Source: Patescibacteria group bacterium (GTDB lineage: Bacteria; Patescibacteriota; Patescibacteriia; JAQUQO01). Taken from it: DNA of 64,000 nt. The notes under the pieces are model-generated. The model ran no database searches, was not told the DNA's origin, and saw nothing but the letters and a program-made list of their open reading frames with translations. Positions within the stretch are counted from its first letter, which is position 1; each line of letters opens with the position of its first letter. The position numbers were made by a program, and so were the translations under genes. This document shows, piece after piece, positions 25,080 through 63,968 of the stretch. The stretch covers positions 798,343 to 862,342 of the forward strand of contig JAQUQO010000001.1 of the NCBI GenBank assembly GCA_028716045.1, in the 5' to 3' direction.

Positions 25080-28187
<3,108 letters not shown>

Positions 28188-28264
28188 ATAAACATTGTGT
28201 AAACAATAACTCGTTGCTTTTATTTTAGAGATATCTTCTTGATATAAAAAAGAGGGTATCAGTA

Positions 28265-28373
28265 TCTTGGTGGCTTTGGCGGGAGGGAAACACCTGTTCC
28301 CATCTCGAACACAGCAGTTAAGCCTCCCAGCACCGATGGTAGTCTTTTGTAGGCGAGAGTAGGCCGCCGCCAA
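28265..28373 (+). rRNA. rrf: 5S ribosomal RNA.
   Basis: 'GGUGGCUUUGGCGGGAGGGAAACACCUGUUCCCAUCUCGAACACAG...CCGAUGGUAGU...GCGAGAGUAGG' with terminal helix TTGGTGGC/GCCGCCAA. Confidence 0.85.
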
Positions 28374-28408
28374 GATTTTGATACTCTCTTTTTGTTTTTT
28401 AAAATCGC

Positions 28409-29352: not shown

Positions 29353-29802
29353 GTGGATAAGCTTATCATTGTAAGACATGGCGATTACGATAGCGGAGCT
29401 CATCTCAGTAATCTCGGTTGTGAACAGATGAAAGCACTCGCCGAGAAATTAAAAACCGTAGTAAATGGGTCGTCGGTTTGTATTCTCACTTCGCCAATCG
29501 GTCGTGCCCTTGAGAGCGCAGAGATTCTCAATTCTGTTTTTAATGTCGGTTGCGAACAACATAAGGTTCTTTGGTCCGAGAGTCGCCATCCAGAGGATTT
29601 TCCCGTGGCTCTTGACCTCGTTCGGTCTCACAAAGATAGGGCCGAGGTGCTTATTCTTGTTACTCATTATGAGTACGCTGAGGGTTTCCCTAGGTATTTC
29701 GCCAAGGAAGAGCTTGATGTTCAGTTGCGTTCGGAATCAATCCAAAAGGGAGAAGCACTGGTTATTGACTGTCAGCAAAAGACCTGGTCCCATATCTCCT
29801 GA
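29353..29802 (+). CDS. Histidine phosphatase superfamily protein (SixA/phosphoglycerate-mutase-like).
   Basis: A GTG start follows a GGAGAAAAAAC RBS. The N-terminal 'IVRHGDYD' RHG motif is present with a downstream His. A stem-loop terminator lies at 29822-29860. Confidence 0.6.
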   Translation: MDKLIIVRHGDYDSGAHLSNLGCEQMKALAEKLKTVVNGSSVCILTSPIGRALESAEILNSVFNVGCEQHKVLWSESRHPEDFPVALDLVRSHKDRAEVLILVTHYEYAEGFPRYFAKEELDVQLRSESIQKGEALVIDCQQKTWSHIS

Positions 29803-29864
29803 AACTTTCGCAGCATCTATAAGCCTCGCTAGTCACAAATGTGATATAGTGAGGCTTTTTCTTT

Positions 29865-30428
29865 TTATTTCAACAATAACATCGCCGCCTCATATTTAGG
29901 CCTGATAATTTCTTTGGACTTATCAAAATGTAATTGTTTCCATTTATTTTCCAATTTTTTTCTGGCAGCTATTTTTGCCTCACCTTGGTCCAGATTTTCA
30001 TAAACAAAGGCCGCTTTGAAAATTCCGGCGATATTATCAAAATTATTCATAACATCGGCTTCGGCCAGAATTTGTTCTTCAATACTTTCACGGGAATTTT
30101 GCTGGGAACCCCGATGATTAAGAATGCACTTTTTAACCAACTCAATTTTTTCAGCAGGATACCCGAGTTCTTTTAATTTTTCTTCCGCAATTTTAGCGCC
30201 GGTCAGGTGATGGTTTTCACGGCCATAAATTATGGAACCTATATCATGCAACCACGCGGCAATCAACATAACCTCTTTATCACCCCCTAATTCATCTGCT
30301 AATTTTTCTACATAGTTGATAACTGGTATAAAATGAAAAATAAAGGGCTCGTAGCCATATTTACTGCTTGGTTTTTTACACTCATTCTCAACAAAATTTT
30401 TAATTTCCTGGACAATATCCATAAACAA
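29865..30428 (-). CDS. HD-domain metal-dependent phosphohydrolase.
   Basis: 'AAWLHDIGS' (H...HD) and a downstream 'D' fit the HD superfamily. The product is 187 aa. Confidence 0.7.
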   Translation of the reverse strand: MFMDIVQEIKNFVENECKKPSSKYGYEPFIFHFIPVINYVEKLADELGGDKEVMLIAAWLHDIGSIIYGRENHHLTGAKIAEEKLKELGYPAEKIELVKKCILNHRGSQQNSRESIEEQILAEADVMNNFDNIAGIFKAAFVYENLDQGEAKIAARKKLENKWKQLHFDKSKEIIRPKYEAAMLLLK

Positions 30429-30469
30429 AGCTAAATTTATTCTTTAGCGGGTAGACAAATCTGTGTTCT

Positions 30470-30958
30470 TTAAACCTGGGCAAAAATAATCATATAATTG
30501 TTGCCATATTTTTTGGCGCATTTCGGGCAATAAGCGTAATGAACATAATAATCTTTAGCTTTCTCTCCTTTGGTGGCCAAGTATTCATCAAGTTGTTTTA
30601 CAAATTTCGGCACCGCGTTATATGGGCCAGCGAAAACTTTGCCGATAAATGTGCCCGAGATATTGGCATTATTCGCGTTCGGCACCGGGCCGGTTACCGA
30701 TAAATAGATTTCCGATTTAAAGGCGCTGGGGTCGCGAAATAATAGCAAAGCATCTTCATGGTTAGTTTCTGCCCTTTTTGAATCTTCAACCATTTTGCAC
30801 ATTTTGGTAACTTTTTTGTTAATCATCGGAGGGAAAGGCATATGAAATAAGGTGGGGATAGTTTCTTTTATAAATGGTTTATTATCCCAATTATATGTTT
30901 TTTGGTCCCATTTTTCGGGATTAAATTTGGGGCAACATTCTTGGTTTTCGTTGGTCAT
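30470..30958 (-). CDS. Hypothetical protein with N-terminal CC and C-terminal CPKC, possibly zinc-binding.
   Basis: A 162-aa ORF with no confident family assignment. Confidence 0.35.
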   Translation of the reverse strand: MTNENQECCPKFNPEKWDQKTYNWDNKPFIKETIPTLFHMPFPPMINKKVTKMCKMVEDSKRAETNHEDALLLFRDPSAFKSEIYLSVTGPVPNANNANISGTFIGKVFAGPYNAVPKFVKQLDEYLATKGEKAKDYYVHYAYCPKCAKKYGNNYMIIFAQV

Positions 30959-30997
30959 ATTTTAGTTATTTTTAAGATTTTGGATTAACACGATTTT

Positions 30998-31055
30998 GTT
31001 TAACGTTTGCGTGTATGTGATGTCGTAGAGTACTCAGGATAGAACCACATATGGG
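30998..31055 (+). repeat. Cassette-junction repeat, copy 1 (TTTAACGTTTGCGTGTATGTGATGTCGTA...ATATGGG).
   Basis: It shares a TAACGTnnGCGTrTATnTGATGTyGTA core and a downstream ATATGGG with copies at 32683 and 33957. It abuts the stop codon of the nucleotidyltransferase gene. Confidence 0.7.
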
Positions 31056-31058
31056 ATG

Positions 31059-31826
31059 TTAGGTTAAAGTTAATTTTGGGCGCAATGTTTTTATCACCTT
31101 AAAATCAAAGATATTTTTTGTTATGTTAAGTTTTTTGGTTAATTTTCTAGCTTCTTTTTCTCCGCCCACGTAATCAAACAACTTTTGCACGTTCCTTTTA
31201 TATCTAGATTTTTCTAGCGAACGGAGCGCAATTAATAAGTTATCAATTTCTTTTTTTGAAGGTTGTTTAAACCCTTTAGACATAAATTTAAGACAGGCAA
31301 AAAGATTTGCCGGATGAGCGATGACGTTTACCCTGAGTTTTTTATTTTTTAAATCCGACATGGCATTTGGTAATGAAACAACTTTTTTAGGCCAGTTTTT
31401 TGAGGTGGCCTCTTTCAGAGATAAGGCGAATCCATTAATAGTAAAGTTGGCGTTATTTTTAAGGTTTTTAAAAATACTTTTTTCTCGTGAAATATGTATG
31501 TCAAGAATTAGATAATCGTTGAACCGGTGTTTTGGTTTTTCAACTAATTTCTTTTTTAATACAACCTCATTTTTTCTTTTTATTTTGCCGTAGATAAATC
31601 CCCGCTTTCTTAAATTCTCTATAAATTTTTTCTTATCACCAATAAGGACTAAGTCATAATCACGTTGGGGGAGAGTGGCGCCAAAAATGTTAAAATAGAG
31701 CGCATTTCTTAGAGCGCCCCCTATTAAAAAGATTTTTGTATTTTTAGGGATAGCCGACTTAACATCAACGAGTATGTTAAATATTTTTAAATTTTTCATG
31801 AAAACCGGCAGTTTTTTTAATTCCAT
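31059..31826 (-). CDS. Minimal nucleotidyltransferase of the polyA-polymerase/CCA-adding-enzyme head family.
   Basis: 'IFLIGGALRNALYFNIFG...RDYDLVL' matches GGxxRD...DxD, and 'NANFTINGFAL' matches the RRDFTINA motif of CCA/polyA polymerases. The product is only 255 aa. Confidence 0.6.
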   Translation of the reverse strand: MELKKLPVFMKNLKIFNILVDVKSAIPKNTKIFLIGGALRNALYFNIFGATLPQRDYDLVLIGDKKKFIENLRKRGFIYGKIKRKNEVVLKKKLVEKPKHRFNDYLILDIHISREKSIFKNLKNNANFTINGFALSLKEATSKNWPKKVVSLPNAMSDLKNKKLRVNVIAHPANLFACLKFMSKGFKQPSKKEIDNLLIALRSLEKSRYKRNVQKLFDYVGGEKEARKLTKKLNITKNIFDFKVIKTLRPKLTLT

Positions 31827-31867
31827 ACGGAGTATTTATAAATTAACTTTTTATTAAATTGGCGTCA

Positions 31868-31900
31868 GCGCGTAACGTATGCGATGAAGAAAGGTCGCGC
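31868..31900 (+). repeat. Truncated cassette-junction repeat (copy 5) embedded in a GCGCG/CGCGC hairpin.
   Basis: GCGCG-TAACGTATGCGATGAAGAAAGGT-CGCGC carries the TAACGTATGCG core of the repeat family. Confidence 0.5.
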
Positions 31901-31911
31901 GCATTTCGTTT

Positions 31912-32280
31912 TTAATTTTTTTTCTTTTTGCACCAGCCAACCAGAAATAAAATCCCGATGAGGAATGCCGGCCCGGCAATTATTAAAGAATAAGACAATG
32001 CAGACCATTGAAATTTTGGGGTTATTACGATGTCCGCTAAATACAACAGTCCGGCCAGAATAAAAGTTACTCCTCCCACTATTTCGTATTTCCACGATAT
32101 CAGCAGGACAATTAATAAAATAAGCGCTGGGATATTGTGCATAAATAATCCTAAAATCGTCCCCCAAAATCCATAATTTCCATCAAAAATATCCAATGAA
32201 AACAGCATTAGGAATAAAATAAAGATGATTGATAAAATTCTTGGCGTCCAGTAGATAAATTGGTTAATCTTTTTTTCCAT
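31912..32280 (-). CDS. Integral membrane protein (hypothetical, four TM helices).
   Basis: A hydrophobic ORF. The start is taken at MEKKINQF, the internal Met of the 31912..32373 track ORF. Confidence 0.4.
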   Translation of the reverse strand: MEKKINQFIYWTPRILSIIFILFLMLFSLDIFDGNYGFWGTILGLFMHNIPALILLIVLLISWKYEIVGGVTFILAGLLYLADIVITPKFQWSALSYSLIIAGPAFLIGILFLVGWCKKKKN

Positions 32281-32391
32281 TTTAAAATGGGTTATTTGAT
32301 AAACAGTATATTGCCTTTTCTTTTTTATACAAAATGCTTTTAGAGAGGGGGTGGCGAGCGTGTTACTTGCCACCCCGTTTTTGTCGGGTTT

Positions 32392-32613
32392 TCAATCAAA
32401 GGCGGCGGCGAAACCCACCAGCACCGTGACCAGCACGACGCAGAGGCCTACGCAGAGACCCCATGGGCCAGGAATGATTAGAGCGGTAAAGGTGCCGACC
32501 ACCAGCCCTTTGGCAAGGTTGGTTCTTAGCACCTTCAACTCGGAATCGTTGGGGGTTATTCCCCAATCAAGATACCATACTAATATCCCAGCAAGATAGC
32601 ATAAAATTTTCAT
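32392..32613 (-). CDS. Small membrane protein (hypothetical).
   Basis: A 73-aa ORF with two TM helices. Confidence 0.35.
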   Translation of the reverse strand: MKILCYLAGILVWYLDWGITPNDSELKVLRTNLAKGLVVGTFTALIIPGPWGLCVGLCVVLVTVLVGFAAAFD

Positions 32614-32682
32614 GGATTCCTCCTGGTTACAGGTTTCATAATTGCGGACCCTCTAAAAGCATTTTGTAAAAGAGCAATATTT

Positions 32683-32766
32683 CCGATAACGTATGCGTGT
32701 ATCTGATGTCGTATTAGCAATATGGGCGAAAGGTAGAGAGGAATTAAAGGGGTGAAGGCCCGTAGC
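32683..32766 (+). repeat. Cassette-junction repeat copy 2 plus the conserved 43-nt GC-rich element directly downstream of the fic stop codon.
   Basis: CCGATAACGTATGCGTGTATCTGATGTCGTATTAGCAATATGGG is followed by GGGCGAAAGGTAGAGAGGAATTAAAGGGGTGAAGGCCCGTAGCC. The 43-nt element is about 85% identical to 34129-34171. Confidence 0.7.
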
Positions 32767-32784
32767 CAGTACTCCAATTTAGTT

Positions 32785-33732
32785 TTAGTTTTTTCTTTGC
32801 CGAGTTCTATTTTTCAGATACCGCTCAGTAGTTTCTTTTGACGTTAACCAATTTCTACCTTCTTTATATGCTTCTAATTTTCCCTGTCTAGCCAACAAGT
32901 TTAGATATTTGGCAGAAAAAGGTGTGGTTTTAGATATTTCAGCTAGTGGTACAAATTTCTCCTGTTTTTGGGTTGAAGGAGTTAAAGTTTTGAGGTAAAT
33001 ATCAAGAGAGCGCTCAATGGATTGAGCGATAAATTTTACCAGTGGTTCATACTTACCGCTGTCTGCCTTTTCCAGCACGTCATAATATTTTTTGCGGTCA
33101 TTCTTCAATATAATCACCAACGGATAGCCGGCTTGCATCAATAGTAAATTCATAGTTAGTCGTGCCGTTCTGCCGTTACCGTCAAAAAATGGGTGAATGT
33201 GTACTAATTTGTGATGGAGCAAAGCAGTCAGCTCAACAACGCCAATCTTATTCTTTTGCGCATTGAGCCAATTAATTAAATCCCTCATTTTTTGTGGCAC
33301 TTGCAAGGCGTCTGGTGGCGTGTGTTTTGCTCCGCCGATAATTACATTGGCGTTTCTGTATCGGCCAGCCCACTCTTTGTCCGTTTCTTGAGTAATAATT
33401 TGATGCAAATTTCGTATGAGCATTTCAGAGATAGTGCGCTTTTTATCCTTATCTACCAGGTCGTACAAATATTCCAACGCGGCTTGATGGTCTTTGGCCT
33501 CCAAATGGTCTTTTAAGGGCTTTCCTTTTATAGTTATGCCCTCGTTGATAACTAAAAAGGTCTCTTTTAAAGTTAAAGAGTTTCCTTCAATAGCATTTGA
33601 GTTGTAGGTCATTTCAATTTGAAACTTTTCTCGAAGTTTTTGTACCGCAGATTTCGGTAGGGGACGAAGTTTGTTGAGTTTGGCTAGTTTTTCTTCCAGT
33701 CGAGCTTTTATTATTGGCGATAGGTAAGTCAT
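32785..33732 (-). CDS. fic: Fic-family AMPylase (class II, with N-terminal inhibitory helix) carrying a C-terminal wHTH-like tail.
   Basis: It has the canonical Fic motif 'HPFFDGNGRTARL' and the inhibitory motif 'SNAIEGN' (S/TxxxE(G/N)). A minus-strand promoter (TTGACC-16-TATACT) lies at 33768-33795. Confidence 0.85.
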   Translation of the reverse strand: MTYLSPIIKARLEEKLAKLNKLRPLPKSAVQKLREKFQIEMTYNSNAIEGNSLTLKETFLVINEGITIKGKPLKDHLEAKDHQAALEYLYDLVDKDKKRTISEMLIRNLHQIITQETDKEWAGRYRNANVIIGGAKHTPPDALQVPQKMRDLINWLNAQKNKIGVVELTALLHHKLVHIHPFFDGNGRTARLTMNLLLMQAGYPLVIILKNDRKKYYDVLEKADSGKYEPLVKFIAQSIERSLDIYLKTLTPSTQKQEKFVPLAEISKTTPFSAKYLNLLARQGKLEAYKEGRNWLTSKETTERYLKNRTRQRKN

Positions 33733-33767
33733 AGAAAATGCTTAATATGGTTTAGGTAAGTATTCAT

Positions 33768-33795
33768 AGTATACCATATTAAGGAATTAGGTCAA
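33768..33795 (-). promoter_or_regulatory. Sigma70-like promoter for fic (TTGACC-16-TATACT on the minus strand).
   Basis: I read it on the reverse complement, about 36 nt upstream of the fic ATG. Confidence 0.5.
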
Positions 33796-33938
33796 GTTTG
33801 AGTATTTATTTGTCATTTTTGAGCGACCCCGAGCTGGGTCGAGGGGGGAGCAAAAAAATACCTTTTCCCCTTTATAAAATAAAGATAAAAATAAAATCGT
33901 TAATTTTTTAAAGCCACGCCCGCTCAAAGCGGGCGAAA

Positions 33939-34171
33939 GAAAAGGAATATTTCAGCTAACGTCCGCGTATATCTGATGTTTTACGGAGCGTAGCGGAGCA
34001 AAATATGGGTGGAGGCTCTGGAAGAGCCGAAACCAGATATACGCTGTTATATGATGTACATGTTTTCCTTTGATTTCTGAAAGAAATTGCTTTTACAAAA
34101 GAAAGATCCGATTTTGTTTTTCCGTTTTGGGCGAAGGGCAGAGGGGAATTAAAGGGGTGAATGCCCGAGCC
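33939..34171 (+). repeat. Cassette-junction repeat copy 3 (elaborated) with the 43-nt GC-rich element abutting the helicase-fusion stop codon.
   Basis: GAAAAGGAATATTTCAGCTAAC (an exact 22-mer shared with 37329-37350) + GTCCGCGTATATCTGATGT...ATATGGG. Internal hairpins follow, including GCGTATATCTG/CAGATATACGC, then GGGCGAAGGGCAGAGGGGAATTAAAGGGGTGAATGCCCGAGCC. Confidence 0.7.
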
Positions 34172-34183
34172 CCAAACACCTTA

Positions 34184-37100
34184 TTATTTTACTTTCTGTT
34201 TTGCTGTTTTCCATCTCTCCAAACTACTTGGTCCAAAGATTTTAATAGCATTTTCCTCTGTTATTTTTAGAAGCTCAGTACTTGAAATAATACCTTCTTT
34301 AAATAGAACTAAATATTCACCTCTTTCTAGATTCAATCCTGCTTCAAGTAAATCAAGAGCTTCGGTTGGTATGCCAACTTCAAGTTGTTTTAAGAGTTTT
34401 TCCATTTCTTCCTCACTCAACCCCCCACCTAAGAACATCACGTTGGAAATTTCATATGCTGACCTAAGATAAAAACGTGTTCCATCTGCAAATTTAATAA
34501 TATCACCATACCCAATTTTACCTTGATAAGGTGTTGTGGAATAATTCGTTTCAATTGTTTCTACTGGTGCCCCATGAATCCAGTCGAATAAAATTGCCGC
34601 TCGTTTACATCTTGCGTAGTAACTAAATTGATCAGGTACAAAATTTTGTAGTGCACGCACTCTGTCACTACCATATTTTTGGACAGCTTCTTGTTGTCTA
34701 CTACTTTCTTTTGTTCCACGCTTCATTACTGGTGTGTAAATTCTGTCTAAATCTGGTAACGCCTGTATCAGGATCATCAGTCCTTCAGCATTGAGTTTTT
34801 TAGGATCTTCTTTTTTTAGCATTTCTACCAGTCTCATCGCAGATGGAAAGGATAATGCTGAACGCCCGCATGCCCTGCCAAGTAACGTTAATTGGACCAA
34901 GAGGCCTTCTTGTTCAATAAGTTGTAATTGGATCATTTGGCCAAGAAGATCCGTAACTCTTTGGTTAATTTCAGCGTGCCAATTAGGATTTGCTTTGGTT
35001 GCTAAGTAGCCGCCATATGTATTTGCCAACAACCTCGGTATTTCATTTTTTGGAATTTGATTAATTTGGGCGAGCAACCGAATGATCCAAGTTTCTATAT
35101 GATTAGGATCAAATGATGAAGTTAACTTCTCTAATTCGCCTACAACGTAGCTGTTAAATAAACGTTCTCTATCGTAGCTTGTTTTTGCGTAAATTATTGA
35201 TTTACCTTCTTCGTGGAAACCAACTCTACCGGCACGGCCAGCCATGTTTTTATATTCTGCTACTGTGAAATTGCGTCCATCTTCACCCAAAAATTCTTGC
35301 TCTGCGATAATTACTGTTGATGCAGGTGTGTTAATCCCTGCTGCTACCGTTGTTGTTGCGCCTAAAACACGAACTTTGCTTTTTGGATTACGGTAGAATT
35401 GTTCAACAATATTTTTTTCTTCACGACTCAAGTTTGTATTGTGAAATGCAGTACCTCCTTGAAGACATTGTCTTAACTTCTCTGATGTTGATGATAAATC
35501 CTGATTTGGTAATTTCGAAAGCGCATCAAGTGCTGGCGGCAGGTGAAGATCGTTGGCCAGATAATTTGCAACACCTTCTGAATTGCCTCGCATGTTTCTG
35601 AAAACAATAATTTTTTCATTTTCGTTGGTGAGTAATATTTTTTTCACCAGAGGCACGATAACATCCTGCGCGCTTGGTTGATCACGTCTTTGTTGTATTT
35701 CGTGGGGCTGGAGTAACTGTTCTGTTTTTCTGTTGCCATCCTTATCAATAAATTCATAGGTACCACTTCTGTCTATTACTCCCTCTATTAAAGGAACGGG
35801 GCGATTAGTGGTTACCAATTTATCGCATTGCAACCATTTATCTAGGTCATTAATTCCCCCGATTACAGCTGATAAAGCTATGACTTGTGGCTGTATTCCC
35901 TTTTCGCGACTAGTTAGTAAATAGGTTAATAACAACTCTACAACTATCCCCCTATTCGGATCTGCAATAAATTGCGCTTCATCAATTACAATTAACCCGA
36001 TATTGTTTAGAACCCACGGATTGCCAATGGCAAGATTTAAAAACATTTCGTAGGTTAAAAGTGCTATGTCATATTTCCCGCTTACGAATGGTTTTGTCTG
36101 GTCAACATAGTCACCAGTACATCGCACTATACGCATACCGAGTTCCTTTCCGTATAATTCTTCAAATTGTTCGTATTTTTCGCTTGTTAATGCGCGATAT
36201 GGAAACAGGAAAACAGTTTTTCTTCCTTCGGTAATGGCTTTTGTAGCTGCTAATTCGCCAATGAAGGTTTTACCAGAGCTTGTAGGCGCTACTACTACCA
36301 AAGAATTATTTTCGAAAATGCGCTTTTCGTTAACTGCCAGAAGTTGTAAATCGTTGAGGCCATCCTTAAAATTTGATTCCCATATATTAAGGATATTTTG
36401 AGGGATTCCAAAAATTTTAAGATCTTTAATTGCTTTTGTAATTTTAGTACCTACTGCTTCTGGAAAATACTTAAAATAGTTTTTACCTTTTTTGAGGACT
36501 GGTATTTTAAATCCACCTTTTATTGAGCCAAATAAAACGGGCGTTTGCGTTATACCTAATCGATTCGCTTCAGCATTTACATGCTCCATTACTTTAGAAA
36601 CAATACTCACCACATCGATTTGTGTACCACCATCCTGTAAAATGTCTATTAGTGCTTTTGTTAAGAGGCCATGACCACTGCCAGGAGTTTCATAGGCCAA
36701 TTGATTTACATCCGAGGCTGCTATTAGAATTCTTCCTTCCCCAGTAAATTGTTTGAAAGTATTACCTGGATCCCTCGGTATAGGGCTATTTTCAAGTACT
36801 TTTGCTGGTGCTCCGCCGCTAAAACAGCAATCAAGTACAAATAATATCGTCTTTGCTTTAGAAGACTTAAATAGATTAGCAATTTCTTCAACTGATATTG
36901 TGGATTTTTCCAAATTAGCTAAAGCCGTATTGTATGTTACAAGTTGGTGAGCATGTGTGCCATGACCAGAAAAAGATATTATTACAGCATCTTCTTCTCC
37001 TGCTTTGTTCAATGTCTCTGCGAGCATTGATTGAATGGCTTCTATGGTAGCATTTTCATCAACCAATAAACTCGCCTGCATGTCCGCTATAGTATCGCTA

Positions 37101-37204
37101 AAGAGCGAGAAGAGTGCGGTTGCATCTTTGCGTGCACCTGTTAGGTCTCGAATGTTGGGGTCGATGTGTTTATCGATTCCTATAAAATTTCCGTATATTG
37201 CCAT
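34184..37204 (-). CDS. Fusion of an N-terminal caspase-like (peptidase C14/CHAT-type, His-Cys dyad) domain to an SF2 Ski2/Hel308-family helicase, with a C-terminal winged-helix/HhH-like region. Candidate defence or abortive-infection effector.
   Basis: The caspase region has 'ISFSGHGTH' (His) and 'ILFVLDCCFSGG' (Cys). The helicase has Walker A 'APTSSGKT', DExx 'VIDEAQF' and motif VI 'MAGRAGRVG', plus the Hel308/Ski2-like 'AFHNTNLSREEK...GATTTVAAGINTPASTVII'. About 300 C-terminal residues resemble Hel308 domains 4-5. Confidence 0.75.
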   Translation of the reverse strand: MAIYGNFIGIDKHIDPNIRDLTGARKDATALFSLFSDTIADMQASLLVDENATIEAIQSMLAETLNKAGEEDAVIISFSGHGTHAHQLVTYNTALANLEKSTISVEEIANLFKSSKAKTILFVLDCCFSGGAPAKVLENSPIPRDPGNTFKQFTGEGRILIAASDVNQLAYETPGSGHGLLTKALIDILQDGGTQIDVVSIVSKVMEHVNAEANRLGITQTPVLFGSIKGGFKIPVLKKGKNYFKYFPEAVGTKITKAIKDLKIFGIPQNILNIWESNFKDGLNDLQLLAVNEKRIFENNSLVVVAPTSSGKTFIGELAATKAITEGRKTVFLFPYRALTSEKYEQFEELYGKELGMRIVRCTGDYVDQTKPFVSGKYDIALLTYEMFLNLAIGNPWVLNNIGLIVIDEAQFIADPNRGIVVELLLTYLLTSREKGIQPQVIALSAVIGGINDLDKWLQCDKLVTTNRPVPLIEGVIDRSGTYEFIDKDGNRKTEQLLQPHEIQQRRDQPSAQDVIVPLVKKILLTNENEKIIVFRNMRGNSEGVANYLANDLHLPPALDALSKLPNQDLSSTSEKLRQCLQGGTAFHNTNLSREEKNIVEQFYRNPKSKVRVLGATTTVAAGINTPASTVIIAEQEFLGEDGRNFTVAEYKNMAGRAGRVGFHEEGKSIIYAKTSYDRERLFNSYVVGELEKLTSSFDPNHIETWIIRLLAQINQIPKNEIPRLLANTYGGYLATKANPNWHAEINQRVTDLLGQMIQLQLIEQEGLLVQLTLLGRACGRSALSFPSAMRLVEMLKKEDPKKLNAEGLMILIQALPDLDRIYTPVMKRGTKESSRQQEAVQKYGSDRVRALQNFVPDQFSYYARCKRAAILFDWIHGAPVETIETNYSTTPYQGKIGYGDIIKFADGTRFYLRSAYEISNVMFLGGGLSEEEMEKLLKQLEVGIPTEALDLLEAGLNLERGEYLVLFKEGIISSTELLKITEENAIKIFGPSSLERWKTAKQKVK

Positions 37205-37328
37205 GTTGTGTGGATTTGGTTTATTTAAAATCGTTTTCGGAGCGAAGCGTAGAAAACACCTTATACCCCTCTATAATTAATGAAAAAGAAATTTTAAAAT
37301 TTTTTAAAACAATTGGGCGATAGCCCAA

Positions 37329-37360
37329 AAAAGAAAAGGAATATTTCAGCTAACTACCTA
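37329..37360 (+). repeat. Truncated/diverged cassette-junction repeat (copy 4) adjacent to the recombinase gene. Candidate primary attachment site.
   Basis: It is identical to copy 3 over GAAAAGGAATATTTCAGCTAAC, then diverges (TACCTATATCCTAAC). It lies 70 nt upstream of the tyrosine recombinase ATG. Confidence 0.55.
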
Positions 37361-37432
37361 TATCCTAACTTGTTTAAAATTTGCTTTATTTATGCTATAA
37401 TTTTAACATAAATGTGAAATCAAAAGCAAGTT

Positions 37433-38272
37433 ATGAATACACATTATCGGCCGAGTCGGGACCCGATAATTTTGTTAAAACAAGAGATGAAGTTACGTGG
37501 TTTCAGCGACAAAACAATCAAAAGCTATATCCATTATATTAATGATTGCTTGCGTTTTGCTGGTACGGACCCGCGCAGCGCGTCTCAAAAAGATGTGCGG
37601 GCATATTTGGAATACTTAGCGGACGAGAATCTTTCTGCTTCCACTATTAATACTGCTTATAGCGCCCTGCTGTTTTATTTTGGCAAAATTCTAAACCGTA
37701 ATTTTTTTGTCAAAATACCGCGCATTAAGAAAGAAAAACATTTGCCCGTTGTATTGTCTCACGAAGAAATTAATAGAATGATTGGGCTGTCTGTTAATCC
37801 TAAGCATAGATGTATTTTATCCCTTCTTTATGGCACCGGCGTGCGGGTGAGCGAATTGACGCATATCAAAATGTGCGATATTGATTTGGACCGTATGGTT
37901 TTGCGGATATATCAAGGCAAGGGGAAAAAAGATCGCTTAACAATTTTGCCGGCAACTTTGAAAAAAATATTATCCCAGCAGCAGGGATTGAAAACATCGG
38001 AAGATTTTTTGTTTACCAATGGCCGGGGCGGAAGATTAACCGAGGCCAGCATCCAAAAAATTGTCGCTTTGGCTGCCGCCAAGGCCGGAATAGGGAAAAC
38101 AGTGTCGCCCCATACCCTGCGCCACAGTTTTGCCACCCATTTGCTTGAAAATGGAACTGATATAAGGTATATTCAGGAATTATTGGGGCATGCCAAATTG
38201 CAGACCACCCAAATTTACACGCATGTGGCGAGCAATAATATTAAAAACATAACAAGTCCGCCGGATTTATAA
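37433..38272 (+). CDS. Tyrosine site-specific recombinase (XerC/XerD-like).
   Basis: It has an N-terminal SAM-like core-binding domain and the catalytic R..HxxR..Y region 'SPHTLRHSFATHLLENGTDIRYIQELLGH...TQIYTHV'. It lacks the extra IntI-specific insertion. An extended -10 TGCTATAAT lies at 37394-37402. Confidence 0.85.
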   Translation: MNTHYRPSRDPIILLKQEMKLRGFSDKTIKSYIHYINDCLRFAGTDPRSASQKDVRAYLEYLADENLSASTINTAYSALLFYFGKILNRNFFVKIPRIKKEKHLPVVLSHEEINRMIGLSVNPKHRCILSLLYGTGVRVSELTHIKMCDIDLDRMVLRIYQGKGKKDRLTILPATLKKILSQQQGLKTSEDFLFTNGRGGRLTEASIQKIVALAAAKAGIGKTVSPHTLRHSFATHLLENGTDIRYIQELLGHAKLQTTQIYTHVASNNIKNITSPPDL

Positions 38273-63455: not shown

Positions 63456-63968
63456 ATTGTAAGCAATCCTGTAAGCCGAATTTTGTACCGATTTTGTTGT
63501 TTTCGCAGACAAAATCAGCGATAATCATCTATCTGGTTCCGATATTGCTATCGGAATCAAGCGAGCTACTTTTAATCCTGCCGCTCACAGGCGACGGGAC
63601 TTTGCTCTTGCGCCGGACAGGGTTTGCCGCTGCACCTTGTCACCAAGGGCAGAATAGAGTGGCCTGACGACCTCTCTATACTTTTCACCTTTGTCCTGTC
63701 ACTCGTGAGTGACGGGATAGTATTGTCTCTGTGGCACTTTCCCTGGGCTTAGGAAACAACGCAAACATCTCGAGAATGTTTAGGTTATTTCTTGCTCCCG
63801 GTTGCCGTTAGCAACTGTCCTTTTGACGGCGTTCGGACTTTCCTCCCCCACGCCCTTCAGCTTTTAGTTATATAATTTATTACTTGTATTTTACTTTTTA
63901 AGACATAAAGATTTACATCTAGCTGCAAAAGCTGAAAGGTGTGGGGGCGATTATCCGGATTACTTATA
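63456..63968 (-). ncRNA. rnpB: RNase P RNA (bacterial type, with an AT-rich insertion in the P3 region).
   Basis: The reverse complement has the P4 5-prime strand GGGGGAGGAAAGTCCGAAC and the P4 3-prime strand ACAAAATTCGGCTTACAGG. AAGCCGAA and TTCGGCTT pair exactly around a bulged U. P1 pairs TAAGTAATCCGG with CAGGATTGCTTAC. A GGTGAAAAG (P10-12-like) element is present. The region is GC-rich and free of ORFs. Confidence 0.8.

Follow-up and report, generated by a model that had tools for sequence, protein, structure and literature searches.

A probable integron-like cassette platform with folded attC-type sites beside an IntI-like tyrosine recombinase in a Patescibacteria group bacterium

The DNA analysed here, called the window throughout, is a stretch of 64,000 nucleotides (nt) from a Patescibacteria group bacterium, a member of the tiny-genome candidate phyla radiation (assembly GCA_028716045.1, contig JAQUQO010000001.1, positions 798,343 to 862,342 of the forward strand). 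It holds a gene for a tyrosine recombinase and, to the left of it, an array of genes on the opposite strand with related repeats at their junctions. Every sequence feature on which a first-pass annotation of these repeats had drawn was present when the window was re-examined. Our results indicate, with good confidence, that the repeats are attC-type recombination sites of an integron-like cassette platform. The array is listed below from the recombinase leftward, in window coordinates; bits and E values given with R1 refer to a covariance model of the site family, A1 is an alignment of that family, and M is an accessory module.

37433 to 38272, + strand: tyrosine recombinase, 279 amino acids (aa); Pfam Phage_integrase (E = 1e-40) and SAM-like domains.
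37373 to 37401, + strand: sigma-70-like promoter of the recombinase gene, TTTAAA-17-TATAAT with TG, 10/12 matches (a consensus match only).
37343 to 37369, + strand: attI-like site ATTTCAGCTAA|C TACC TATATCCTAAC, putative exchange at 37353/37354, beside the recombinase promoter.
37205 to 37353, − strand: leader of cassette 1, with an inverted, diverged copy of M, the 25-mer and a terminator-like hairpin (37328-37313).
34184 to 37204, − strand: gene of cassette 1, a caspase-HamB/Hel308-like helicase of 1006 aa (Peptidase_C14, DEAD, Helicase_C).
34062 to 34183, + strand: module M, the trailer of cassette 1, with a first hairpin, a TTGTTTT-like T-rich run and the 43-nt hairpin (34129-34171).
33945 to 34061, + strand: copy 3, an intact attC-like element (R1 115.2 bits, E = 2.5e-28), putative exchange at 33959/33960; a member of A1.
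33733 to 33959, − strand: leader of cassette 2 (Fic), an M-like inverted module with a 25-mer identical to that on the attI side.
32785 to 33732, − strand: gene of cassette 2, a SoFic-type Fic protein (Pfam Fic; PADLOC SoFic, E = 1.7e-38).
32675 to 32793, + strand: copy 2, a degraded attC-like element (R1 22.4 bits, E = 0.0017), putative exchange at 32689/32690.
32325 to 32671, − strand: small cassette with a 73-aa open reading frame (ORF; 32392-32613) and a 21-nt inverted repeat (32325-32345/32651-32671).
31873 to 31911, + strand: possible remnant site after a DUF7670 gene (31912-32283/32373, − strand), with TAACGTATGCG and a short hairpin.
30989 to 31074, + strand: copy 1, a short, partly degraded attC-like element (R1 23.9 bits, E = 7e-4), core at 31001.
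29865 to 30958, − strand: distal end of the island, Bact_hydrolase and HD-domain genes (Pfam).

The repeats have in common a core, TAACGTNNGCGTRTATNTGATGT; in the window it lies only at 31001, 32687 and 33957, each time on the + strand, also when three mismatches are allowed; the chance expectation is none (100 shuffles, up to 3 mismatches). To this extent the shared core of the first-pass annotation stands, but the upstream AATATTTC that it included, although found in copy 2, in copy 3 and at the recombinase, is missing from copy 1, which has GATTTTGT instead. A 25-mer, AAAGAAAAGGAATATTTCAGCTAAC, is exactly the same at 33936-33960 and at 37330-37354, and divergence starts right after its TAAC. 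The 11-bp stem GCGTATATCTG/CAGATATACGC of copy 3 was confirmed, and by virtue of it the copy 3 junction (33925-34060) is the only junction that folds significantly better than its shuffles (z −2.4 on the + strand and −2.7 on the − strand). The copy at 31868 retains only the 11-mer TAACGTATGCG in common with copy 2 (31873-31883, within a GCGCG/CGCGC hairpin), and in a search of 641 nt the family model did not recognise it (2.3 bits, E = 4).

Further copies outside the window and compensatory changes, on which the first reading depended, were both found. The core motif occurs in 93 stretches among 185,579 species-representative genomes (596 Gb), where about 2 would be expected by chance from its 19.5 specified bases, and in at least 120 stretches of metagenomes; a motif scan of the IMG/VR viral contigs found none. 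Alignment of the flanks revealed that the TAACGT core is the 5' third of a longer conserved element of about 105-120 nt, with a complementary 3' arm 60-180 nt downstream in 78 of 100 motif occurrences. Within the window, only 33945-34061 is intact. Read on the + strand of the window, the consensus begins AATATTTCnnyTAAC GTyy GCGTATATCTG ATGT[hairpin P1]ATAT GG and continues GT[hairpin P2]AC CAGATATACGC T GTTAGCTGATGTATT. In the predicted fold, an outer stem of TAAC/GTTA (each conserved in at least 83-99%), extended by ATTTC../..GATGT, is followed first by a 4x1 internal loop and then by the 11-bp stem, which leads into a tight three-way junction; there, the pairing of ATGT and ATAT forms the base of P1. 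Copy 3 adopts this fold on the + strand, with the R box TAAC/GTTA, a GTCC x T loop, the 11-bp L stem and the three-way junction with P1 and P2.

The fold is supported by covariation. In alignment A1 (64 sequences), 88.7% of the cells are paired against 28-44% in slid controls, and in alignment A3, whose 150 covariance-model matches did not require the exact motif, 87.9% against 30-45%; such an alignment leans toward the structure of its own model, and the slid controls are nonetheless far lower. A3 contains 908 double-change cells against 330 in shuffles, a score reached by none of 500 shuffles, and most positions of the 11-bp stem switch among GC, CG, AU and UA. Two wobble pairs are conserved, a G.T at the base of P1 (45-179; 138 of 150 sequences) and a T.G in the outer stem (6-282; 112 of 150). 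Since these wobbles are conserved and G.T outnumbers A.C (207 against 55), the folding strand appears to be the + strand. The L stem and the base of P1 are 96.6-97.5% paired and form an 18-bp stem without bulged bases, with no consensus bulge and with a spacer of 4 nt on one side and 1 nt on the other. The element can be read as two inverted half-sites, the outer stem AT.TC...TAA/TTA...GA.GT and the inner stem with the P1 base, ATaT|C..ATA/TAT..GA.GT, which have the ATWTC/GAWGT motif in common and hold one conserved wobble each. This reading would explain why the P1 base is invariant. The hammerhead ribozyme was compared by eye because of a CUGAUG, and was rejected because its GAAA strand is missing. 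At about 2610-2700 of another locus (L091), a long palindrome without an ORF, with the tip ATTTCGGATAAC-CAT-GTTATCCGATGT, has the outer stem without the inner stem or the junction, and may be a minimal or empty cassette site.

The elements follow genes. When the element is set on the + strand, 60 of the 66 genes that adjoin it on the right are encoded on the opposite strand and have their ends there, which makes the folding strand the non-coding one. The model gave 207 matches in 93 loci, many of them same-strand arrays with a spacing of 400-1500 nt; in L060, nine same-strand copies are followed by the recombinase gene. Comparison thus shows the family, its structure, its strand asymmetry and its position after genes at the level of sequence. 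Homologues of the window recombinase (35-47% identity) occur in 12 loci, and the side and orientation of the recombinase are as in the window in 9 or 10 of the 11 loci checked. Reciprocally, four of five loci picked by recombinase homology alone (64-69% identity) have 4-5 model matches each (E ≤ 0.005); every one of these is on the + strand and lies upstream of the recombinase gene, and no match at that threshold lies downstream of it. The upstream genes in these loci encode Fic, HicA, an acetyltransferase, an anti-Pycsar-like protein, and MutH with a methylase, and the genes to the right of the recombinase are housekeeping genes that differ among related genomes (YchF, Dus, UvrC, SpoU). By this comparison of loci, the site family is linked one-sidedly to the recombinase clade.

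The point of exchange is indicated by two loci, L094 and L095, with an identical recombinase. They are identical rightward from AAC|TCCTGTTATACC (AAC|TCCTG), whereas their left flanks and first genes are unrelated. Together with the pairing tests given below, this split bears out the crossover that had been proposed from the divergence after TAAC in the window, and it places the exchange, by comparison, at TAA|C. It likewise upholds the view that a cassette array beside a tyrosine recombinase has these junction repeats as its recombination sites. The first cassettes of these loci (L094 9700-10000 against L095 2040-2340) hold an acetyltransferase and a hydrolase in one, and an N6_N4 methylase and MutH in the other, and provide a natural before-and-after pair for cassette turnover. 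An attI-like layout, ...nnyTAAC|T(A/C)C..TAT.C.AAC, recurs at 40-132 nt upstream of the start of the recombinase gene in about 13 other loci. With the left half-site, some 6 bp and then a weaker arm, TAT.C.AA, this side resembles an ordinary double-stranded site.

These results bear on the possibility that the array is an ordinary integron remnant, i.e. an attC cluster without integrase that is serviced by a canonical IntI elsewhere, the adjacent recombinase being an unrelated Xer-type enzyme. The AAC/GTT triplets, the bottom-strand folding and the gene orientation do match integrons, most reported archaeal integrons are clusters without integrase (PMC9668308), and the adjacent enzyme passes a XerA-type model. 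Against this, the recombinase clade keeps the same side and orientation relative to the arrays, loci picked by the recombinase alone bear arrays on that side only, and cassette turnover falls exactly at the recombinase-proximal AAC. Furthermore, no insertion of 30 aa or more, such as the inserted domain of IntI, was found in any recombinase homologue in 218 loci, and the 18-bp stem of L and P1 has no bulged bases. The nine published archaeal attC sequences are canonical and differently laid out, and three motifs of the present family do not occur in the supplementary files of that paper. Owing to the one-sided linkage and to the lack of an IntI with the domain among these loci, a remnant of this kind seems quite unlikely.

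In arrays, the four variable bases of the 3' R arm (R'') were set against the 5' flank of the neighbouring site on the recombinase side, and 3.28 of 4 were paired, perfectly so in 46 of 86 cases. The value was 2.62 within the same junction and 2.50 ± 0.095 for random partners, and that observed was reached in none of 2000 draws. Complementarity within the own cassette also extends to the 60-nt flanks beyond the element (13.1 against 7.2; 59 cases against 19; p = 9e-9). The pairing therefore runs across the cassette and not across the junction, as expected if the unit reaches from one TAA|C to the next and closes as a circle; comparison thus identifies the cassette as the exchanged unit. A long, near-identical palindrome in many genomes would also suit miniature palindromic repeats of the MITE (miniature inverted-repeat transposable element) or REP (repetitive extragenic palindromic) type, inserting between genes independently of the recombinase. 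In such a self-contained palindrome, the arms across one junction should be complementary and those across a gene should not, which is the opposite of what is seen, the former being complementary no more than random. This, the strict orientation relative to genes and the linkage of the arrays to the recombinase on one side only make such repeats an extremely unlikely explanation.

The conserved sequence does not stop at the core. In an all-against-all blastn comparison aimed at the ends of cassettes, long matches were too few for direct mapping of the boundaries, and the comparison led to the finding of module M. Matches between loci are longer than the core, with core and M together spanning about 240 nt at 85-88% identity to L025, L067 and L069. 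Module M extends for about 125 nt past the 3' end of the core, and its consensus (alignment A2, 22 sequences) consists of GATGTATTCCTTTTCTTTT, a first hairpin, TTGTTTT and an A/T-rich stretch, followed by GGGC-GAA-GGGCA [GAGGGGAATTAAAGGGGTGAA] TGCCC-GAA-GCCC, which ends at the stop codon. Both hairpins covary (e.g. GGGC/GCCC, GGAT/ATCC, GGGGG/CCCCC), with 91% of the cells paired against 13-57% when slid, and none of 500 shuffles reached the observed score. The loop motif of M has 48 matches in 768 kb, 35 of them in loci with mapped model copies; 32 of these 35 are on the same strand, 73-145 nt past the core, and 24 of the 32 lie at 73-80 nt.

In the window, the 43-nt element has exactly two copies, 32724-32766 and 34129-34171, where 0 are expected; they differ by 4 substitutions and small indels, and end about 17 and 12 nt from the stops at 32785 and 34184. 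The two copies noted in the first-pass annotation are thus real, but its reading of them as a free-standing signal in the 3' untranslated region (3'-UTR) or of Rho type is not sustained, since they form a covarying hairpin inside the module of about 125 nt, 73-80 nt from the core in most copies. At the level of sequence, the 43-nt element is a hairpin of an accessory module that keeps a fixed distance of about 77 nt to the core.

M recurs, inverted, to the left of the exchange point, and the 25-mer is part of this copy. It follows that the 25-mer also occurs in L033, L044, L046 and L069; it is family-wide consensus and is not peculiar to this array. The leader of cassette 1 is homologous to leaders in L008, L012, L021, L023, L045 and L096 and, read by eye in reverse complement, agrees with the A2 consensus of M over about 75 nt. 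The paired M arms lengthen the hairpin that the cassette can form with itself. In copy 2 the 43-nt hairpin occupies the arm of the second hairpin, P2, and the distal half of M is 72% identical to the copy 2 core over 85 nt, which suggests that M may derive from a duplicated core.

Some properties of these modules would be compatible with a structure that acts mainly as RNA, either an antisense small RNA that would start in the leader, cross the core and reach the first hairpin of M, or a 3'-UTR element of the cassette mRNA. The wobbles on the + strand are compatible with G.U pairs. The −10-like CCCCTCTATAAT is conserved on the folding + strand of leaders (window 37250-37277, L008, L023, L045), points through the core to the first hairpin of M and could drive a small antisense transcript. 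The first hairpin of M, followed by TTGTTTT on the same strand, resembles an outward-facing terminator in a consensus scan. However, the leader is present at only about one fifth of the junctions, the conserved wobbles become C.A mismatches on the mRNA strand, and Rfam 15 has no match at gathering score in the array (four matches at E ≤ 5 are far below gathering and chance-like). A role as RNA would also leave the attI junctions, the exchange point and the pairing with the far end of the same cassette unexplained, and we regard it as very unlikely to be the main function.

The recombinase itself points to the same platform of recombination sites. Its motifs RVSEL, GKGKKDR, HTLRHSFATHLL and LLGH...IYTHV align with those of solved enzymes, and its top-scoring NCBIfam model is XerA/'integron integrase' (XerA_Arch; 249, above the cutoff of 220). 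The XerC and XerD models score below the IntI models. The best solved relative is VchIntIA (2a3v), with query 14-186 aligned to IntI 8-183 and query 201-276 to IntI 241-316, and the XerA structures 5hxy and 4a8e align with the recombinase end to end. Six other array-adjacent enzymes likewise score higher on IntI than on XerC/D models; a 303-aa XerC/D-like protein in L054 does not. The near-full-length array-adjacent homologues that resemble the window recombinase all align without insertion, and array-linked recombinases have 270-290 aa. There are more than 7,900 relatives at E ≤ 1e-20, mostly of 273-290 aa, whose source names are 'site-specific tyrosine recombinase/integron integrase' or XerD.

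The enzyme might instead be a chromosome-dimer resolvase, of the kind that segregation requires and that interacts with FtsK, the attI-like site its dif, and the cassettes hitch-hiking elements that integrate via a folded single strand like CTX phage. In single-recombinase Xer systems (XerS, XerH), dif adjoins the gene, as the attI-like site does here, and the folded site imitates a two-arm dif-like site. The recombinases of candidate phyla have been grouped with Xer as 'Cand' (PMC8138268). On the other hand, dif would be a single terminus site at a skew switch, and here there are dozens of sites per genome. GC skew is positive on both sides of 37.3 kb, cumulative skew rises without a switch, and the genes on both flanks are mostly on the + strand, so that the locus does not look like a replication terminus. 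The differing right-hand neighbours in related genomes, the separate XerC/D-like enzyme in L054 and the preference of the enzyme for IntI over XerC/D models also argue against it. With no skew switch and with flanking genes that keep their orientation, a dif with hitch-hikers is quite unlikely.

Compared feature by feature with integrons, the system combines a tyrosine recombinase closest to IntI with a putative attI that adjoins it and at which cassettes appear to enter, an imperfect inverted repeat with an AAC/GTT R box and a probable A/C exchange on the folded bottom strand, and a candidate mobile unit whose 5' end would complete its own attC when circular. It has neither the IntI-specific additional domain near patch III (PMC9668308; PMC8138268) nor the two extrahelical bases (typically G and T) and roughly symmetric spacer of attC (PMC7439510). 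Judged by its sequences, it is a cassette system that works like an integron yet fails two defining integron features.

We propose that the divergent recombinase (37433-38272) would insert and excise circular cassettes at the attI-like site upstream of its own promoter (37353|37354). Each cassette would end in an element of about 105-120 nt, whose bottom strand (the + strand here, opposite the genes) would fold and imitate a two-arm recombinase site. In this structure, the R box would be AT.TC...TAA|C paired with GTTA...GA.GT and followed by the 4x1 loop with an invariant GT, and the L box would be made up of the 11-bp stem and, beyond it, the base of hairpin P1. The ATWTC/GAWGT motif would be present in each box, together with a conserved G.T wobble that only the folded bottom strand has. 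By analogy with integrons, a single strand may be cleaved between A and C and the product resolved by replication. In integrons the inserted domain of IntI reads the extrahelical bases. Classical attC sites depend on such bases (PMC7439510), and here the wobbles and the asymmetric GTyy loop may have taken over the marking of the strand.

Several points weigh against this integron-like reading. The enzyme scores 233 on the integron integrase model TIGR02249, in two stretches and under the cutoff of 265; the scores of six other array-adjacent enzymes (205-260) are also under it, and IntI residues 184-240 of 2a3v are represented by only 14 residues, i.e. the inserted domain is missing. As it fails the integron threshold and has no defining domain, the enzyme might, in principle, be a housekeeping Xer. 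In cassette 1 of the window, the R'' (GTTATAT) and the 5' end of the cassette (AGCTAAC) pair at only 2 of 4 positions. A terminator-like hairpin separates attI from the first gene, and the Fic gene appears to have its own promoter, unlike the promoterless cassettes driven by the integron cassette promoter (Pc). In copies 1 and 2 the conserved 5' half has no partner to fold with, which a double-stranded site would explain equally well. The evidence is comparative throughout, and the taxon labels of contigs from metagenome-assembled genomes (MAGs), the archaeal and 'Gammaproteobacteria' ones included, are those of the record titles. A double-stranded 'site A only' (ATTTCAGCTAA, 9 bp, ATATCTGATGT) may apply to copies 1 and 2, but it does not explain the covariation.

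Going a step further, one may ask whether this is a second, possibly ancestral, integron lineage, with an IntI-like recombinase that has no hallmark domain, folded sites that mark the reactive strand by G.T wobbles and an asymmetric loop, a pervasive presence in the candidate phyla radiation (CPR) and occurrence in DPANN and other archaea as well, and cassettes built on a shared palindromic chassis of core and paired M arms. We put this forward tentatively, with somewhat less than even confidence. Near-identical cores were seen in MAGs labelled Altarchaeum, Woesearchaeota, Thermoplasmatota, Methanoregula, Omnitrophota, Thiomargarita and many 'Gammaproteobacteria', one of the last being an 886-kb chromosome; either these groups have a cassette pool in common or the contigs are mis-binned or mislabelled.

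The likeness to classical integrons is extensive (PMC7439510; PMC9668308): a recombinase divergent from a same-orientation array of mostly single-gene cassettes, an insertion site beside the recombinase promoter, an imperfect palindrome after each gene, exchange at AA|C of a 5'-...yTAAC R box on the folded bottom strand, first cassette bases that pair with their own far end, and cargo of the toxin, defence and acetyltransferase type. The differences concern both enzyme and site. The recombinase here has 270-290 aa without the inserted domain, and in place of extrahelical G/T there is the 4x1 loop with invariant GT and two conserved G.T wobbles. The tip is a sequence-conserved three-way junction and not a free variable loop, the primary sequence of the site is nearly identical across phyla, and many cassettes have paired M arms of about 125 nt and apparently their own promoter and terminator signals.

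CTX phage, acted on by XerCD, offers another comparison. Its single strand, folded from two inverted half-sites about 90 nt apart, makes a dif-like target with an imperfect centre for a Xer-type recombinase; one strand is exchanged, and tandem insertions build up at one site. The present sites would share these traits; here, however, the units are single-gene cassettes and not phage genomes, the site lies off a skew switch, the enzyme is IntI-like and the core motif was not seen in viral contigs. The VCR (Vibrio cholerae repeat) arrays of Vibrio are sedentary and chromosomal, with highly similar sites and decaying distal cassettes. The present arrays resemble them in all these respects, but the similarity of VCR sites is confined to one genus, whereas the near-identical cores span many CPR classes and MAGs labelled archaea. 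In size, domain layout and catalytic motifs, the recombinase is like archaeal XerA and the 'Cand' Xer subgroup (PMC8138268). For those, dimer resolution at a single dif is assumed, and the present clade stands beside variable arrays with dozens of folded sites.

Integrons are known from Bacteria and, since 2022, from Archaea, where the integrases keep the additional domain and attC is canonical (PMC9668308), and Smyshlyaev et al. placed candidate-phyla recombinases in the Xer-related 'Cand' group, with Xer function assumed (PMC8138268). No paper was found that links these enzymes to cassette arrays or describes the site family, work on integrons of CPR, Patescibacteria and DPANN included, in a literature that left out most subscription journals; the motif sequences, searched as text, turned up only in unrelated primers. 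The site family is large, highly conserved and apparently undescribed.

If the proposed platform is real, a widespread cassette system without either the extrahelical bases or the domain that reads them, by which integrons are defined, would show that the integron lifestyle is independent of that domain, and would supply a plausible intermediate between Xer-type enzymes and IntI. Thousands of CPR annotations as 'XerD/integron integrase', with their adjoining variable islands, would leave the housekeeping category; the islands beside the recombinase here hold defence-like genes. A shared core with paired arms around unrelated genes bears on the old question of cassette assembly, and the palindromic chassis, if true, could show how cassettes are made. 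Provided that the binning is sound, near-identical sites in MAGs of distant phyla and of archaea would point to a cassette pool that groundwater communities have in common.

Within the window, the state of the sites changes along the array. Copy 3 is the canonical full element (115 bits), and copies 1 and 2 have a lost or degraded 3' arm (24 and 22 bits). As it is the sole intact site and the others are degraded, copy 3 represents the ancestral form from which the other window copies have decayed; the earlier suggestion that it had acquired extra hairpins is thereby reversed. Copy 2 retains an intact 5' arm, and its 3' L arm and R'', which abut the Fic stop, have decayed, with many non-pairs and no significant fold. 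Copy 1 follows a nucleotidyltransferase-like gene (31059-31826, − strand), with the GTTA of R'' overlapping the stop codon. Because the distal sites are decaying, the distal cassettes of the window are probably fixed. The hairpin of the possible remnant at 31873-31911 pairs AACG/CGTT and ATGCG/CGCAT, is not seen by R1 and can be assigned to the family only putatively.

The 21-nt inverted repeat around the 73-aa ORF is 20/21 (95%) complementary and encloses a GC-richer segment of 305 nt, with a terminator-like palindrome at 32348-32376. The family model found no core element after this cassette, and gave no score at the 73-aa ORF/DUF7670 junction in a small search space. The arrangement fits the family rule that the leader pairs with the trailer of the same cassette, and the segment looks like a tiny cassette whose leader and trailer arms were kept and whose core site is gone.

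Among the genes, the helicase of cassette 1 matches Hel308-type helicase models and the PADLOC HamB and caspase models; the fusion resembles Hachiman-type defence helicases, but with a protease head. A consensus match to a sigma-70-like promoter lies at 33795-33768 in the Fic leader (TTGACC-16-TATACT, 10/12), and a consensus scan found no Pc-like promoter facing the array. No site was detected with R1 between or after the Bact_hydrolase and HD genes, and a convergent + strand gene and a hairpin lie at 29353-29860. The GC content of the island is 0.37-0.39 against 0.41-0.46 in its flanks. Elsewhere (25081-28375 and 63456-63966), the window contains 23S and 5S rRNA genes, whose 25 kb of upstream sequence has no 16S, and an RNase P RNA. 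The match to 23S covers 3109 nt against a model of 2925 positions and that to RNase P RNA 511 nt against 367 positions, which suggests that both genes carry insertions.

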